Shown: positions 42,001 to 48,000, numbered from the stretch's first letter. The stretch is 53,245 bases of DNA from Thermodesulfovibrionales bacterium (GCA_963715195.1 CAVQRT010000033.1:1-53245), one strand, 5' to 3'. A program made the numbers.

Positions 42001-45000
42001 GGAAACATACCGCTGCGATTGAGGCCATAATGAACATCGCGATATACTCGCCGAGAAAAAAGAGGGCAAATCTGAACCCGCTGTATTCGGTAAAGTATCC
42101 TGCGACCAGTTCGCTCTCTGCCTCGGGCAGATCGAACGGTGTCCTGTTGGTCTCGGCAACAGCTGAAATCGTAAAGACAATAAAAGCCACAAACTGTGGT
42201 ATCGCGTATACCCCAAAAATCGATGCCTGCTGGGCCCTCACAATATCAGAAAGGTTCAATGAACCGGTAAGGATCATAACGCCGACAAGGCTAAGGCCCA
42301 TCGCAATCTCGTAGCTGAGCACCTGGGCAGATGAACGCAAACCGCCGATAAAGGCATATTTTGAATTGGAAGCCCATCCGGCAAGGAATATCCCGTATAC
42401 CCCGACGCCAGCGATGGCGAAAAGAAACAGAAGTCCGACATTCAGATCTGCGATGACAAAGTTTTCCGAATACGGAATGACCGATAAATTCACCATGGCA
42501 GATGCCATGAAAATGACAGGAGCCAGATAGAACATGGCCTTATCCGCTTGAGCCGGGATAATATCCTCCTTGAAGAATAACTTCAGTCCGTCGGCAAAAG
42601 GCTGCAAAAGTCCATGCGGCCCTACCCTCATGGGGCCAAGCCTAACTTGCATATGCCCAATGACTTTCCGTTCGAAATATGTTGCATATGCAACATGGAG
42701 CAATCCAACGGCGAGAACAACCACAATCTTAAGAACAATGATAAGCACATTGATCCCGAATGCTATTAATCCGTCAAGCATTTCAGGTGATATGATATTC
42801 CCGACATTCATGGTTATCTGTCACATTCTCCGAGAACGATATCGATCGTACCGATTGCTGCGATGACGTCAGCAACCAGGTGGCCCGCACAGAGCCTTGG
42901 CAGACAGCCGGCATGTATAAATGACGGGGCCCTCACTCTCATCCGGTAAGGCTTCCCTGTCCCGTCGCTCACGAAATAAAAACCGAGTTCCCCTTTCGGA
43001 ACCTCGGTCGCAACATAAATCTCACCTTCGGGGGCTTTCGGGCCTTTCTTGACGAATTCGAACTGCCTGACAAGATACTCTCCGGCTTTTTTTATGTCGT
43101 CTGGTAGTTCATTCGGAGCAACCGCGAGTTCCGCAAGTTTTTCATCGCTCAACCCTTTCCCGCCGGGCACAATCGTCAGGGCCTTGAATTTGCAGGTAGC
43201 GTAGCAGGTTGCGCAACTAACGCAGAGCTCCTGTTTAATTGTATGGGGTACTTTCTTTTGCCCAACAATTGCCTTTGCAGGGCAAGCCCTCAGGCACATG
43301 CCGCATGCCTTACATGCCTTTTCGAGAATAAAATATGCGTGCTGTTTTGTCGGATGCGTAATGGCCATCATTTTGTCCTTGGGCTGCATCGTAAATTTCG
43401 GTTCATCCGCCATTACGGGGCCTGCCGGCAACTTTTCGATACACTGCCTGATAATGTTGTTCGACTGCCTCATTTCCAGCATTCTGCACCGGTATCTGTC
43501 ATAGGTATCGCCCTCTGTTCCGATCGGCACATCGAATTCAACTTTATCGTACGCATCATAGGGTATATGCTTCCTTATATCATAGGAGACACCGGAACCT
43601 CTCAGCGTTGGACCTGTCATTCCCCAGTTTACCGCCTCTTCAGCCGAAATAACACCTATTCCCACTGTCCTTTTAAGCCAGATCCTGTTCTGGTCAATCA
43701 GGGTTTCGTACTCGAGAATCCTCGACGGGAATTCATCGGTAAACTTCCACAGGCTGTCGAGGAACTCCTGCGGGACATCGTTTCGAACTCCGCCTACTCT
43801 CGGGAAGGTGACAGTTAGCCGCGCTCCGCAGATCATCTCATAGAGATCAAGGATCCATTCCCTCTCTCTGAAGCAATAGAGAAATACGGTCATTGCACCG
43901 ATATCAAGGGCATGAGTTGCAAGCCAGAGCAAGTGGTTTGCGATCCTCGACATCTCCCCAACGATGGTTCTGATGAATTTTGCCCTCTCGGGAGCTTCTA
44001 TTCCAAACAGTTTTTCGACAGCCACACAATAGCCGATGTTATTTGACATCGCAGAGACATAGTCCATTCTGTCGGTGAGGGGGAGAGCCTGGAAATAGCT
44101 CAGACTTTCACCAAGCTTTTCAATACCCCTATGCAGGTATCCGACATATGGGGTAACGTTCACAATCGTTTCACCGTCAATATCAAGGACGAGCCGCAGA
44201 ACACCGTGGGTAGCCGGATGCTGTGGCCCCATATTGACACTGAGTTCTCTTGTCTCGAATATCTTCTCTGCTTCTTTCTGAATCATCTTATCCTGCCCAC
44301 TCAAACTCTCTCAGTTCCTTCGAACGCTTGACGACGTCAGTGAAACCGGCCCAATCCTTATCGAACTCCGGTCCTTTCAACGGATAATCTTTTCTCAGCG
44401 GATACCCTTCCCAGTCCTCCGGCATGAGGATCCTTCTGAGGTCGGGGTGACCGACAAAGTTAATTCCGAACATATCGTAGCATTCCCGTTCATGCCAGTT
44501 TGCACCAGCCCATACGGATACAACAGAGTCGATCTTCGGATCGTTTTCAGGTACCTGAGCCCGAATTCTGATTCTGTGACGGTATCTGATCGAATAGATG
44601 TTATACACCACTTCGAACCGTATCTCTTTTTTCTTGATGTAATCGACTGCGGTGAGATCCTGAAGATGATCGAAACTAAGCAGCGGGTCATCATGAAGAA
44701 ACCTGAGAATCGCGACAATCTGATCCCTCTTTATAATTACAGAGACCTGATCTCTGGATTCAACGACTTCAATTACCTGGTCGGGAAATTTCCCCTTTAT
44801 TGTCTCCGCTATATCAATTGGTGCAAGTCCTGAGGGCTCTAAGGTAAGCCTTACTTCCGTTACCGCCATGGACTCCACCTCGCACGTTCTTTTCGAATCT
44901 TTTCCTGGAGCATCATCATACCTTCGAGCAGGGTCTCTGGCCTCGGGGGACATCCCGGCACATAGACATCGACCGGCAGGAAAGTTTCGCATCCCTGAAC

Positions 45001-48000
45001 GGTGCTGTAGGTTTTAAATACACCACCGGTGCATGCACAGCTTCCCATCGCCACAACATACCGTGGGTCGGGAATCTGGTCATATACCCTTCTTATCACA
45101 GGGGCCATCTTCTTCGTAACGGTGCCGGCGACGATCACACAGTCAGCCTGCCTTGGTGAGCCTCGGAAAATAATGCCAAACCGGTCGAAATCGTAATGTG
45201 ATGCGCCCACGGCCATCATCTCAATGGCGCATCAAGCGAGTCCGAAGGTCGTTGGCCAGATCGAGGATAATCTTCCCCAGTTGATGATCTTGTCGAATGT
45301 CGTAACGATGAGGTTGGGTGGTAATACCTTTACGCCTTCCTCTACTTCGACGAGACCCGTTGCAGATGTTTCGATCAACATCTCTTTCCCCCTGTAATTA
45401 GGTTAATCCCATTCGAAAGCTTCTTTTCTCCAGGCATAGATGTATCCGACCAGGAGTATGGCAATAAAAAGAACCATCTCGATGAATGCATAAATACCGA
45501 TCTTATCAAAAACAAGAGCCCATGGATAAATGAATATCGCTTCAACATCAAACACCACAAAAAGCATCGCGATGATGTAAAAGCGGATGGAGAATCTGTA
45601 ACGTGGCTCTCCCTTTGGGGTGATGCCCGATTCATAGGGCATGAGCTTCTCATAATATGGCTTTCTGGGTCTGAAAACGAAACCGATGAGGAGAGCGCCA
45701 AGGCCAAATACCGAGGCGATAAGGATGAAGATGAGCACCGGTAAATATTCTGATGGCAAATACGTTCCAGGCATAAGCGGTTATGTTATACTGAAAAGCC
45801 TTAATGCTTGTCAAGCAAAAAAATTGTTGTTCTCTTGGGAGGAGATTTGCATGTATAAGATCCTGAGGAAGGAAGTGCTTTCCGATTTCGTAATCCTGTT
45901 CGAGATAGAAGCCCCCGAGATCGCAAAAAAGGCAAAGGCAGGGAATTTCTTTGTGCTCAGGATACATGAACAGGGAGAGCGGATTCCGTTAACGATAGCT
46001 GATTTCGATAGGGAAAGAGGGACGATAACGACGGTCTTTCAGAAAGTCGGCAAGACAACAAACCACCTGGCGACGTTGAAGGAGGGTGACTTCCTTACTG
46101 ACGTGGCCGGCCCCCTCGGCATGCCTTCTCACATCAAACATTTCGGGAAGGTCGTCTGTGTAGGGGGCGGCGTCGGGATAGCACCCGTTTATCCGATAGC
46201 ACGTTCATTAAAAGAGGCAGGCAACACCGTTATTTCGATTATAGGGGCACGGATGAAGGAATTGATTTTCTGGGAAGAAAAAATGCGCAGCGTCTCTGAT
46301 GAACTCATCGTCACGACAGATGACGGCTCCTATGGGCGAAAAGCTGTGGTCACCGTTCCGCTTGACGAGCATCTCAAGGACCATAAAGACGTAAAACTTG
46401 TATATGCTATCGGCCCGGCCATCATGATGAAATTTGTCTGTCTCACAACAGAAAAGCACAAGGTAAAGACGATCGTCAGCCTCAACTCCATCATGGTTGA
46501 CGGGACCGGGATGTGCGGGTCATGCAGGGTGGAAGTGGGTGGAGAAACAAGATTTGCCTGTGTCGATGGCCCGGAATTTGACGGCCATCAGGTTGATTTT
46601 GATCTGCTCATGTCACGCCAGAGGATGTATATAGGCGAGGAAAAAGAAGCTATGGAACACTTTAGGGTAAAGACCGGGAGACAGGTAGTGGACGAAAAAC
46701 GCGCGAGCAGGAAGACGGAGAACAGGGTGGTAATGAGGGAGCAACCCCCGCTCGAGCGGGCGCGGAATTTCATGGAAGTTCCTTACGGTTATACACCTGA
46801 GGAAGCCATGAAAGAAGCATCGAGATGCCTGAACTGCCTGAAGCCGACCTGCAGGAACGGATGCCCTGTTTCGGTAGACATTTCTTCATTTATCAAATTG
46901 ATCAGGGAAGGCAGGTTTATCGAGGCAGCATGGAAAATCAAGGAGGAGAATGCACTTCCTGCCGTGTGCGGCAGGGTATGTCCGCAGGAGATACAGTGCG
47001 AATCCATGTGCATTCTCGGAAAGAAAGGCGATCCCGTCGCAATCGGGAATCTGGAGCGCTTTGTCTCTGATTACGAGAGGGAATCGGAAGAGATCCAGAT
47101 CCCGGATAAGCCGGCCCCATCAGGCAGAAAAATCGCGGTAATCGGTTCAGGTCCTGCTGGACTCTCCTGCGCTGCCGACCTCGCGAAATCAGGGCATCAG
47201 GTTACATTGTTCGAAGCCCTGCATAAGCCCGGCGGCGTCCTGATCTATGGAATACCGGAATTCAGACTTCCCAAGGTAATTGTCGAAAAAGAAGTTGACT
47301 ATATCAAAAAGCTCGGCGTGGAGGTCCTCGTCAATGCAGTGATCGGGAAGCTGCATACCATCGAAGAGTTATTGACCATACACCAATATGATGCATGCTT
47401 CATTGCGACAGGGGCCGGACTGCCGCTATTTCTCGGCATACCCGGTGAAAATCTCAATGGTATCTATTCCGCCAATGAATTTCTCACACGGGCGAATCTC
47501 ATGAAATCATATCTTTTCCCTGAATACGACACACCCATAAAGAGAGGGAAACATGTTGCGGTAATCGGCGGCGGGAATGTTGCAATGGATGCTGCACGGG
47601 TTGCCCTCCGTTTGGGAGCAGAGAAAGTACATCTCATATACAGACGTTCAGAAGATGAGATGCCTGCTCGCAAGGCGGAAGTCCATCACGCCCGTGAAGA
47701 AGGAATAGCATTTAACCTGCTGACGAATCCGGTCCGGTTTATCGATGACGGAAAAGGAAATGTTGCCGCTGTTGAATGTATCAGAATGGAACTGGGTGCA
47801 CCAGATGATTCCGGCAGAAGAAGGCCTGTCCCTGTTCAGGGCAGTGAATTTCAGATCACGATCGACGTTGCCATCCCCGCGCTCGGGACACGGTCAAATC
47901 CGCTCCTTATCAGAAATGTGCCGGACCTCTTACTGAACAAGAGAGGCTATATCATTGCGGACGAAAAGACAGGTATGACCTCAAAACAAGGGGTATTTGC

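Follow-up and report, generated by a model that had tools for sequence, protein, structure and literature searches.

A probable selenocysteine at a ligand position of cluster N2 in the complex I subunit NuoB of a Thermodesulfovibrionales bacterium

NuoB proteins and selenoprotein genes described so far

The closest described proteins are the cysteine-type NuoB, Nqo6 and NDUFS7 subunits of complex I (PSST, NUKM; PF01058, TIGR01957), with which the TGA-containing nuoB considered here shares its family, its length and its place in the operon. In Yarrowia lipolytica NUKM the ligands of cluster N2, according to a passage of PMC8042128, are the tandem cysteines C85 and C86 together with C150 and C180, and this agrees with the role that the survey's finding had given to both tandem cysteines. 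Three of the four ligand cysteines of canonical NuoB are at the expected positions in the protein studied here, whereas the first tandem ligand is encoded by UGA. The complex also differs from canonical complex I, as it has no NuoEFG and its NuoD contains an inserted two-cluster ferredoxin domain.

The textbook example of a selenoprotein gene dependent on SelB and a SECIS element is E. coli fdhF. As in bacterial genes of this kind, the nuoB UGA is aligned to a cysteine in homologues, and selenocysteine (Sec) and cysteine forms are mixed among relatives. Two further likenesses are found in selD of the same genome: a hairpin whose loop opens with a G begins about 15-20 bases past the UGA, and the UGA can pair at the foot of a longer stem. 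Unlike in these genes, the SECIS candidate of nuoB overlaps a strongly conserved protein motif, and its 3' arm has two alternative UGAUG partners, at +1 and at +17.

The replacement of cysteine by Sec in cluster-binding motifs has been catalogued in other families, for example in an RnfB-like Fe-S protein (table of PMC13188914, a 2026 review), and the genome studied here encodes an RnfB-like selenoprotein at G000:C7:377638-378774, with Sec in the PF04060 motif. However, the catalogued Fe-S selenoproteins are soluble or accessory electron carriers, while NuoB is a core subunit of proton-pumping complex I and holds its quinone-reducing cluster. The [NiFeSe] hydrogenases are selenoenzymes related to the NuoB/NuoD module, their small subunit being homologous to NuoB, and the nuoB frame has a weak NCBIfam match to the NiFeSe small subunit (E 1.7e-5). 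Their Sec is located in the large subunit and binds Ni, as stated in the same review (PMC13188914), whereas that of NuoB would take an Fe-S ligand position in the homologue of the small subunit. NuoB is absent from two review tables of selenoproteins, one of them in PMC13188914, and we found no listing of NuoB as a selenoprotein in the literature and catalogues searched. The earlier proposal of an undescribed kind of selenoprotein appears right for the family (NuoB, complex I) but not for the principle, since Sec at predicted Fe-S ligands was already catalogued.

The nuoB frame, its operon and its distribution

The window is the whole of contig C33 (CAVQRT010000033.1, 53,245 nt) of Thermodesulfovibrionales bacterium GCA_963715195.1, whose host is termed Nitrospirota-type; the features discussed are collected in Table 1. 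On re-translation we obtained the same single frame with one TGA, closed by TAA, that had been described before. In profile searches this frame scored above the cut-off for both TIGR01957 (236.8 bits, cut-off 142.7) and NF005012 (246.6 bits, cut-off 116), and the reported PDB matches were recovered with mouse NDUFS7 (6g2j_B, E 6.1e-63) and T. thermophilus Nqo6 (2fug_6, E 1.4e-57). The alignment with 6g2j_B sets the TGA codon against the initial C of TFGLACCAVEMM, that is, at the first cysteine of the tandem pair, as the survey had it. By ungapped offsets inferred from the PDB alignment ranges, not from a printed alignment, and carried over to the Y. lipolytica numbering, residues U50, C51, C115 and C144 of the product fall on the four N2 ligand positions. 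Positions 51, 115 and 144 are cysteines and position 50 is UGA, so that the set of four ligands would be complete under a Sec or Cys reading of the UGA and not otherwise.

Table 1. Features of the nuo operon and of the nuoB region in the window (contig C33)
Feature	Position	Strand	Description
nuoA	45403..45774	minus	Pfam Oxidored_q4, E 2.7e-37
nuoB CDS	44860..45381	minus	173 codons + TAA stop, single in-frame TGA
TGA, codon 50 of nuoB	45232..45234	minus	probably read as selenocysteine; first residue of the tandem-Cys N2 ligand pair
Hairpin A, 5' arm	45226..45234	minus	contains UGA; pairs with 45199-45207, the 3' arm common to hairpin B
Hairpin B	45199..45218	minus	candidate SelB-binding SECIS; +17 to +36 from the U of UGA
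Hairpin B, 5' arm	45211-45218	minus
Hairpin B, loop	45208-45210	minus	GUN
Hairpin B, 3' arm	45199-45207	minus	one bulged G
nuoC	44288..44869	minus	Pfam Complex1_30kDa, E 3e-51; start overlaps nuoB end
nuoD	42814..44304	minus	496 aa; Pfam Complex1_49kDa, E 4.5e-114, two stretches; Fer4 at residues 326-372
nuoH	41765..42811	minus	Pfam NADHdh, E 8.3e-128
nuoI	41219..41762	minus	read in two frames; Fer4 in second piece
nuoJ	40710-41222	minus	Pfam Oxidored_q3
nuoK	40408-40710	minus	Pfam Oxidored_q2
nuoL	38384-40258	minus	Pfam Proton_antipo_M
nuoM	36835-38376	minus	Pfam Proton_antipo_M
nuoN	35411-36838	minus	Pfam Proton_antipo_M

The gene sits between nuoA and nuoC/nuoD, in a Pfam order of nuoA, C, D, H, I (two pieces), J, K, L, M and N, whose nuoJ-nuoN block spans 35411..41222 on the minus strand. 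The ferredoxin-like domain inserted in NuoD has two CxxCxxCxxxC motifs, with cysteines at 331, 334, 337, 341, 361, 364, 367 and 371. This complex I has 11 subunits and lacks NuoEFG. We also considered the small subunit of a group 4 membrane-bound [NiFe] hydrogenase and rejected it by profile score, as the hydrogenase matches of nuoB are weak (E 1e-7 to 1e-3, against 1e-74 for NuoB) and the partner protein matches Complex1_49kDa at E 4.5e-114. The gene set and order of the 11-gene nuoABCDHIJKLMN operon are thus as the survey gave them; its intactness as assembled is not, for nuoI is frameshifted by a 1-base insertion near 41506-41519 relative to three relatives. Taken as assembled, the frameshift means that the complex may be broken in this one genome; it is probably an assembly error, since the only rpoB of the genome is also broken into several frames.

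A second, Cys-type nuoB, 88% identical, is indeed present at C35:42315-42830. In the gene tree it does not group as sister to the copy on C33, and its operon is frameshifted in nuoC, nuoD (four single-base insertions) and nuoJ. Contig C35 shares about 16 kb of synteny with C33 (72% identity), parts of contigs C7 and C30 match it at 83-91%, and bin contamination is 6.57%, from which we consider that the C35 copy probably comes from a second population in the bin.

Among the 56 other genomes of the family, the reported 13 with a one-TGA nuoB were found again. The remaining matches were said to contain none, and this did not hold: the match at G021:C22:49434-49844 shows 3 TGA and looks like an out-of-frame piece of a frameshifted gene. 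All 14 TGA forms have the TGA at the same codon in the alignment, as claimed. This codon 50 is TGA in 14 of the 51 close full-length nuoB of the family (7 of 26 genera), and the other 37 have Cys. Across the order, the Sec-type motif occurs exactly in 78 of 317 genomes (43 of 122 genera, 6 of 13 families), while the reversed control pattern gave 0 matches in the same 317 genomes; in a species-representative collection at least 120 contigs, bearing the labels of several phyla, contain it. Close relatives have switched repeatedly between the Sec and the Cys form.

Synonymous constraint and two overlapping hairpins

The 14 TGA forms do not differ from one another at codons 57, 59, 60 and 61, which vary in the 37 Cys forms. 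At 111 codons the same degenerate amino acid is present in every Sec form; a single codon is used throughout at seven of these, and four of the seven are codons 57, 59, 60 and 61 (hypergeometric P 2.9e-5, which becomes about 3e-3 because codons 57-61 were picked after the data were seen, out of some 107 possible windows). In 2000 random subsamples of 14 Cys forms, the mean number of frozen codons in 57-61 was 0.002 and the maximum was 1. The ratio of synonymous entropy between Sec and Cys forms is 0.42-0.45 across codons 49-66, 0.63-0.76 in the flanking windows and mostly 0.83-1.1 in windows away from them. The survey had described the 3' arm as varying among Cys forms, and accordingly GGC GCA TCA occurs in 3 of the 37. 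The hairpins that can form here are short, their z-scores against shuffles are unremarkable (-2.0 to +0.5), and many Cys forms also fold locally in the region (-4 to -13 kcal/mol), owing to the self-complementarity of Ala-Gly-Ala codons. Hairpin potential alone is therefore weak evidence, and it is the frozen synonymous sites that carry the argument.

Two hairpins with a common 3' arm can form here. Hairpin A, the one proposed earlier, consists of UGAUGYGCN, an 18-base interior and GGCGCAUCA. Its conservation in all TGA forms is confirmed for the 3' arm GGCGCAUCA (14/14), while the 5' arm UGAUGYGCY is found in 13 of 14, G015 having GCA. Third positions vary in this arm (position 6: C 7, U 7; position 9: C 10, U 3, A 1). 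Hairpin B has its loop at +25 to +27 and is the local minimum-energy fold in 14/14 Sec forms, with -8.6 kcal/mol; it is identical in only 2 of the 37 Cys forms. The only variable third position of the frozen stretch, that of codon 58, is located in its loop.

As the two hairpins use the same 3' arm, conservation of this arm cannot tell A from B. We think that hairpin B, and not the UGA-containing hairpin A, is the better SECIS candidate and the putative site of SelB binding. A UGA in the A site must be single-stranded, and the next dozen or so bases are inside the ribosome. Hairpin A includes the UGA and so cannot exist during its decoding. With the UGA in the A site and the first 12 or so downstream bases within the ribosome, hairpin A would be melted; the freed 3' arm GGCGCAUCA would then pair with the nearer UGAUGGCC segment, and SelB would bind the resulting hairpin, which spans +17 to +36 and consists of 8 pairs, a single bulged G and a G-U-N triloop.

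That hairpin A is itself the functional SECIS bound by SelB seems to us unlikely, even if the free 36-mer has it as its minimum-energy structure in 14/14 Sec forms (full fold -10.2 to -16.8 kcal/mol) and its bare 9-pair stem alone (-9.6 to -14.6 kcal/mol) is more stable than B. Third-position changes in its 5' arm mostly preserve pairing (C or U opposite G), and in the selD, RnfB-like and DsbA-like genes of the genome, too, the UGA is base-paired at the bottom of a long stem. However, position 9 is an A-G mismatch in one of the Sec forms, and the 18-base interior has no convincing apical hairpin. Besides the ribosome footprint, the preference for hairpin B rests on C24, which is unpaired or weakly paired in hairpin A and, unlike position 9, invariant in 14/14 Sec forms, while Cys forms use all four Ala codons at the site of C24, and on analogy with other genes and lineages. 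The four other selenoprotein genes of the genome (selD, the RnfB-like Fe-S protein and two DsbA-like proteins) have an upper hairpin that starts at about +15 to +26, with a loop at about +22 to +34 and G in its first or second place, and hairpin B resembles them in position and loop. In other Sec-NuoB lineages residues 57-62 differ (17 types); most types have their own hairpin, folding at about +19 to +40, and the UGA is unpaired in most. The bSECISearch program reportedly expects a SECIS to have its apical loop about 16-37 bases past the UGA and a G near the beginning of that loop, and hairpin B, by sequence and predicted fold, agrees with both. An Rfam search of the stretch returned no family match.

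Reading of the UGA and possible selenium at cluster N2

We estimate a probability of about 85% that nuoB is a genuine selenoprotein gene, whose UGA codon 50 would be decoded as Sec by Sec-tRNA(Sec) and SelB. This reading is based on a UGA at a conserved Cys, the Sec machinery, conservation, purifying selection and the RNA constraint 3' of the UGA that is specific to UGA forms; at the level of sequence, the analysis supports the view that nuoB has all the computational hallmarks of a bacterial selenoprotein gene. The genome encodes SelB (355.6 bits, cut-off 242.25), SelA (624.3 bits) and SelD (369.4 bits, the gene itself containing one TGA), and one copy of tRNA-Sec (73.4 bits). Every one of the 14 family genomes with TGA-nuoB has selB, as do 293 of the 317 genomes of the order and 75 of the 78 with the Sec pattern, the other three being 78-87% complete; since selB is near-universal in the order, its presence in Sec-pattern genomes is not discriminating.

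The sequence does not show which residue is inserted, and Cys is known to replace Sec under selenium shortage in other systems, which counts for a reading of the UGA as a standard residue, either Cys or Trp by a near-cognate or suppressor tRNA, or Cys carried on tRNA-Sec. We hold this to be improbable. ARAGORN predicts one tRNA with anticodon UCA, which is tRNA-SeC, and a tRNA-Trp with anticodon CCA. TGA is an ordinary stop in this genome, as it ends 569 of 1525 open frames of at least 250 codons. The aligned residue in homologues is always Cys, and a hairpin constraint specific to UGA forms is predicted for SelB-dependent decoding, while plain read-through would not need one.

Still less probable is that the UGA is a true stop, with nuoB a pseudogene or a split gene and the Cys-type C35 copy doing the work. 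Such a copy exists, the nuoI of the same operon is frameshifted, and codon 55 is an ATG that opens a downstream frame of 119 residues. However, the split product would lose both tandem ligands, and the C35 operon is itself frameshifted and probably belongs to another population. The TGA is kept in 13 further genomes of the family, none with another close nuoB copy, and in the Sec-pattern genomes of the order. Both halves of nuoB are under strong purifying selection: among Sec forms the median dN/dS is 0.074 5' of the TGA and 0.025 3' of it (median dS 1.4-1.8), against 0.089 and 0.034 in Cys forms.

Finally, we give almost no weight to a sequencing or assembly error, despite the indels of this assembly (rpoB, nuoI, the C35 nuo genes), as what separates TGA from the Cys forms is a substitution and not an indel, 13 further family genomes have the identical codon, and contigs of two other public runs of different years, X4 (2015; a 2470-base contig spanning the whole stretch) and X8 (2017), show the three bases unchanged. 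With these older public metagenome contigs in agreement, the TGA is no assembly slip. A 151-base contig from a metatranscriptome (RNA) library, X18, also spans the TGA identically, although a contig from an RNA library does not amount to proof that nuoB is transcribed.

The product of Sec decoding would be a full-length NuoB with Sec in place of the first of the adjacent cysteines that hold the [4Fe-4S] cluster N2, and the quinone-reducing cluster would then have one selenium ligand. Rare forms would carry Sec at the second tandem position or at both. It is somewhat probable, with less assurance than for the decoding itself, that selenium is a direct ligand of the terminal cluster N2 in the proton-pumping complex I of a large part of anaerobic sediment bacteria, namely about one in four species of the order plus representatives of several further phyla. 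If so, Sec would occupy the more mobile of two strained tandem ligands, beside the quinone site, where it would alter the potential of N2 or its protonation behaviour, and the performance of the enzyme would depend on selenium supply. The switching between Sec and Cys, together with these rare forms, would then serve as natural experiments on how the tandem pair takes part in coupling.

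The in-frame TGA of nuoB

In the survey's finding, nuoB was read as a single frame of 173 codons that crosses one internal TGA, and this reading holds: the frame ends in TAA and codon 50 is its sole internal TGA. In profile searches it scored 236.8 bits against TIGR01957 (cut-off 142.7) and 246.6 bits against NF005012 (cut-off 116), while no selenoprotein-specific NuoB model was present among its 15 NCBIfam matches. The structural matches were also recovered, the best solved structure being mouse NDUFS7 (6g2j_B, E 6.1e-63), in whose alignment the TGA codon lies beneath the first C of TFGLACCAVEMM; T. 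thermophilus Nqo6 matched at 1.4e-57. A nuoB match with exactly one TGA was found, as previously counted, in 13 of the 56 other genomes of the family. Among 51 close full-length nuoB genes of the family, codon 50 is TGA in 14 (Sec forms) and TGC or TGT in 37 (Cys forms), its position being identical throughout; this set leaves out the gene of G026 (73% identical), partial pieces (one in G008, two in G021) and eight paralogues of about 50% identity.

An error in the assembly of G000, the genome under study, can be ruled out as the source of the TGA, which is a substitution relative to the Cys forms and not an indel, and which is kept in other public contigs. Local indel errors do occur in this assembly: its sole rpoB match is broken up into four or more frames and interrupted by numerous stops, and the adjoining rpoC is intact. 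Seventeen public runs contained 50% or more of the words sampled from the nuoB stretch, and four of these runs were compared in detail. In a 2015 run, one contig of 2470 bases spans all of 44700-45500 with four differences that leave the TGA unaffected, and in a 2017 run one of 1607 bases spans 44700-45285 with no difference at the TGA. In a metatranscriptome library, a contig of 151 bases (45184-45334) has zero differences, which shows presence in an RNA library but is no proof of transcription.

Selection acts on both sides of the TGA, a pattern not expected of a pseudogene or of a split gene. Among Sec forms, dN/dS is 0.074 upstream (codons 2-49, computable for 58 of 91 pairs) and 0.025 downstream (codons 62-173, 46 of 91), with synonymous sites near saturation, as the median dS of 1.4-1.8 indicates; the Cys forms give 0.089 and 0.034 over the same codons.

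The G000 assembly holds a second, Cys-type nuoB in another nuo operon on contig C35. With its flanking genes and a tRNA, this operon follows the gene order of window 35411-50354 with an identity of about 72%, and the two nuo operons themselves share 72-75% DNA identity. Considering this synteny, the position of the C35 nuoB in the gene tree, where it is not sister to the copy in the window, the likeness of C35 to parts of contigs C7 and C30 (83-91%) and an estimated contamination of 6.57%, the C35 copy most likely derives from a second population or strain in the bin, as the survey had suspected. Frameshifts in its nuoC, nuoD (four) and nuoJ raised the idea of a decaying pseudogene, which was set aside because the only rpoB of G000 is frameshifted too.

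Codon constraint and the predicted SECIS hairpin

At 111 positions the 14 Sec forms all share one and the same degenerate amino acid, and just 7 of these positions never vary in codon; the 7 include the four codons 57 (GCC), 59 (GGC), 60 (GCA) and 61 (TCA). The clustering of frozen codons in 57-61 has a hypergeometric P of 2.9e-5, or about 3e-3 when corrected for the choice of window. The variation of these 3'-arm codons in Cys forms, earlier seen in a few genes, extends to the larger set, as three or four different codons are used at each of the four sites among the 37 Cys forms; when 14 Cys forms were drawn at random 2000 times, a draw had on average 0.002 frozen codons in 57-61 and at most 1. 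Recent common ancestry cannot account for the frozen codons, because the Sec forms are scattered over the gene tree (nine state changes by parsimony, at least three of them forced by well-supported branches alone) and Sec/Cys sister pairs exist within genera. These comparisons of genes show an RNA-level constraint that is limited to the UGA forms.

The survey had proposed a hairpin that contains the UGA (hairpin A), in which, counting the U of UGA as +1, bases 1-9 (UGAUGYGCN) pair with bases 28-36 (GGCGCAUCA). Hairpin A is indeed the minimum-energy fold of the free RNA, but as the putative SelB-binding form we prefer a second predicted hairpin, B (+17 to +36). The pentamer UGAUG is present twice, at +1 and at +17 (within AUG AUG codons), so that the 3' arm of hairpin A can alternatively pair with bases 17-24. 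Hairpin B comprises eight pairs, a bulged G31 and a loop G25-U26-N27, and every one of the 14 Sec forms has it as the local fold of minimum energy, at -8.6 kcal/mol. During decoding the UGA and about a dozen following bases sit inside the ribosome, and a ribosome at the UGA would melt hairpin A, whose released 3' arm could then form hairpin B.

Our preference for hairpin B has four grounds. C24, a synonymous site in its 5' arm, is invariant, whereas position 9 of hairpin A is C, U or A. The sole variable third position of the stretch (codon 58) sits in the loop of B. Comparable upper hairpins exist in selD, an RnfB-like gene and two DsbA-like genes of G000, starting at about +15 to +26 with G first or second in the loop, while the UGA of these genes does no more than pair at the base of a longer stem. 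Finally, the UGA of other lineages is as a rule left unpaired, and of the 17 sequence types (over residues 56-62) the majority have their own hairpin at about +19 to +40. The hairpins of different lineages occupy slightly different registers. Shuffle z-scores for 42-base regions of the 17 lineage types ranged from -2.0 to +0.5 and are uninformative for hairpins this short, and a permissive Rfam search of 45100-45300 returned two chance-level matches and no SECIS family. Cys forms also fold frequently here, because Cys-Cys-Ala and Gly-Ala-Ala codons are inherently complementary, which qualifies both hairpins; this pre-existing complementarity may have made it easier for the SECIS to arise. In 2 of the 37 Cys forms, from G025 (L029) and G019 (L045), hairpin B is identical and codon 50 is TGT; by their sequences these two genes look like recent Sec-to-Cys converts with a fossil SECIS.

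Selenoprotein synthesis and genomic context

G000 is equipped for selenoprotein synthesis and uses TGA otherwise as a stop. Matches were obtained to selB (355.6 bits, gene at G000:C2:326140-327990), selA (624.3 bits), selD (369.4 bits, with one in-frame TGA of its own) and tRNA-Sec (73.4 bits, gathering score 47). ARAGORN predicted 49 tRNAs, with anticodon UCA only in tRNA-SeC and CCA in tRNA-Trp, and of 1525 open frames with 250 or more codons, 569 end in TGA. The presence of selB fails to discriminate TGA-type from Cys-type genomes, being found in 54 of 57 genomes of the family and 293 of 317 of the order.

A genome-wide scan for in-frame TGA between long open stretches was too noisy (1244 candidates), and requiring a nearby Cys and a hairpin reduced it to 76. 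Pfam, applied to 11 of these, gave three clear cases, two paralogous DsbA-like genes and one RnfB-like gene; the other eight matched no Pfam family and were set aside as unproven. The RnfB-like Fe-S protein belongs to a selenoprotein family already in the catalogues (PMC13188914), in which Sec takes a predicted cluster-ligand position. Two further frames share the TGA context L-E-[EK]-TGA-F-C-K-P-E, each followed by a hairpin of -10 to -12 kcal/mol and neither with a match in Pfam; the pair may represent an unlisted selenoprotein, or else a non-coding repeat that was read as a frame.

Concerning the operon, the eleven genes described by the survey are present in the order nuoA-B-C-D-H-I-J-K-L-M-N, without nuoEFG, but nuoI lies in two frames as assembled. 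The economical reading is a likely assembly error, because the only rpoB of G000 is also broken; a true inactivation of nuoI in G000 alone is conceivable. The nuoI of G013 has a different 1-base insertion. A ferredoxin-like insert in NuoD, also found in the C35 copy, could be an electron entry point in a complex without NuoEFG. The divergent neighbour encodes a PyrK/NfnA-like FAD/NAD and 2Fe-2S module joined to a GltD/NfnB-like module (Fer4_20 and pyridine-nucleotide oxidoreductase), and since this gene also follows the C35 operon, its pairing with nuo is conserved.

Location of the features discussed (plain ranges are window positions)
Feature	Location	Strand	Remark
nuoI	41219-41762	-	1-base insertion near 41506-41519, relative to G035, G034 and the C35 copy
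nuoD	42814-44304	-	496 aa; insert at about 43190-43315 (two CxxCxxCxxxC, residues 331-371) splits the 49-kDa domain
nuoB	44860-45381	-	TGA at 45232-45234
Predicted hairpin B	45199-45218	-	
Divergent neighbour of nuo operon	45686-48127	+	813-aa fusion
Second nuo operon with flanks	G000:C35:32903-46347		
rpoB match	G000:C36:13307-17204		
RnfB-like polyferredoxin	G000:C7:377638-378774	+	Pfam; U inside PF04060 Fe-S motif (U-G-A-C-G-F-A-G-C); GGG-loop hairpin at +22 to +24
DsbA-like (Thioredoxin_4)	G000:C10:5000-5758	-	Pfam; TGA in U-P-F-C; strong hairpin downstream
DsbA-like (Thioredoxin_4)	G000:C14:9754-10521	-	Pfam; TGA in U-P-F-C; strong hairpin downstream
L-E-[EK]-TGA frame	G000:C7:263370-264299	+	
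L-E-[EK]-TGA frame	G000:C2:340565-340942	-	
nuoB motif L209	G239:C85:49618-49650		Cys-Sec (TGC TGA)
nuoB motif L210	G305:C117:512-544		two adjacent TGA codons

Distribution, novelty and the ligands of cluster N2

The Sec-type motif was found in 78 of the 317 genomes of the order, covering 43 of 122 genera and families f1, f5, f7, f11, f12 and f13, while a reversed control pattern had zero matches in the same 317 genomes. In a species-representative collection it is present in at least 120 contigs; the matches listed there carry the labels, coarse as these are, of Nitrospirota, Thermodesulfobacteriota, 'Deltaproteobacteria' (shown as Myxococcota), Pseudomonadota, Chloroflexota and Candidatus Tharpellota. 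One of the contigs with the motif (L152) is titled Thermodesulfatator autotrophicus strain S606, a cultured strain; a cultured carrier therefore appears to exist, and the prediction is testable at the bench. Two rare variants were observed, one whose TGA occupies the second of the tandem positions (in G239) and one with a TGA at both (in G305, 63% complete and with no selB match); both genes are otherwise intact and have the usual hairpin of their lineage, and, each being seen in one genome, they may reflect sequence error.

A selenoprotein of this kind had been regarded by the survey as not described before, and the sources consulted contain no description of one. The tables of two reviews of prokaryotic selenoproteins (2022; 2026, PMC13188914) list an NqrE-like 'NADH:ubiquinone oxidoreductase subunit E', RnfB-like Fe-S and 2Fe-2S proteins; NuoB is absent from these tables, as are 'Nuo' and 'complex I' from the texts of both reviews, supplements lying outside this scope. 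No Sec-containing NuoB was found in the literature searched, which excludes the supplementary tables of selenoproteome surveys, and these could list it. On sequence grounds we class NuoB as a candidate new selenoprotein family with the usual bacterial decoding, at a site of unusual mechanistic interest.

The survey had named the tandem cysteines as ligands of N2, the terminal [4Fe-4S] cluster of complex I, in agreement with the structural literature: the ligands are four cysteines of NDUFS7, the strained tandem pair C85/C86 (Y. lipolytica) plus C150 and C180, and C85 is the more mobile of the pair, near the quinone-ligating Tyr of NDUFS2 (PMC8042128). U50, C51, C115 and C144 of the G000 frame map onto these ligands (6gcs_K 60-202 against query 25-166, one gap near query 123), the three cysteines all being present. 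We therefore predict, from the alignment, a selenium ligand at the first tandem position of N2; an effect on the potential or protonation of the cluster would be speculation.

Because gene callers split nuoB, NuoB or complex I may be scored as broken or missing in about a quarter of the species of the order. N2 with its unusual tandem-cysteine ligation is central to the question of how quinone reduction is coupled to proton pumping in complex I; a natural selenium-for-sulfur ligand would provide a built-in spectroscopic label (77Se), with natural Sec/Cys pairs, such as G051/G052 or G035/G034, for comparison. A core respiratory enzyme would also join the selenoproteome, which would imply selenium-dependent respiration in many sediment anaerobes.
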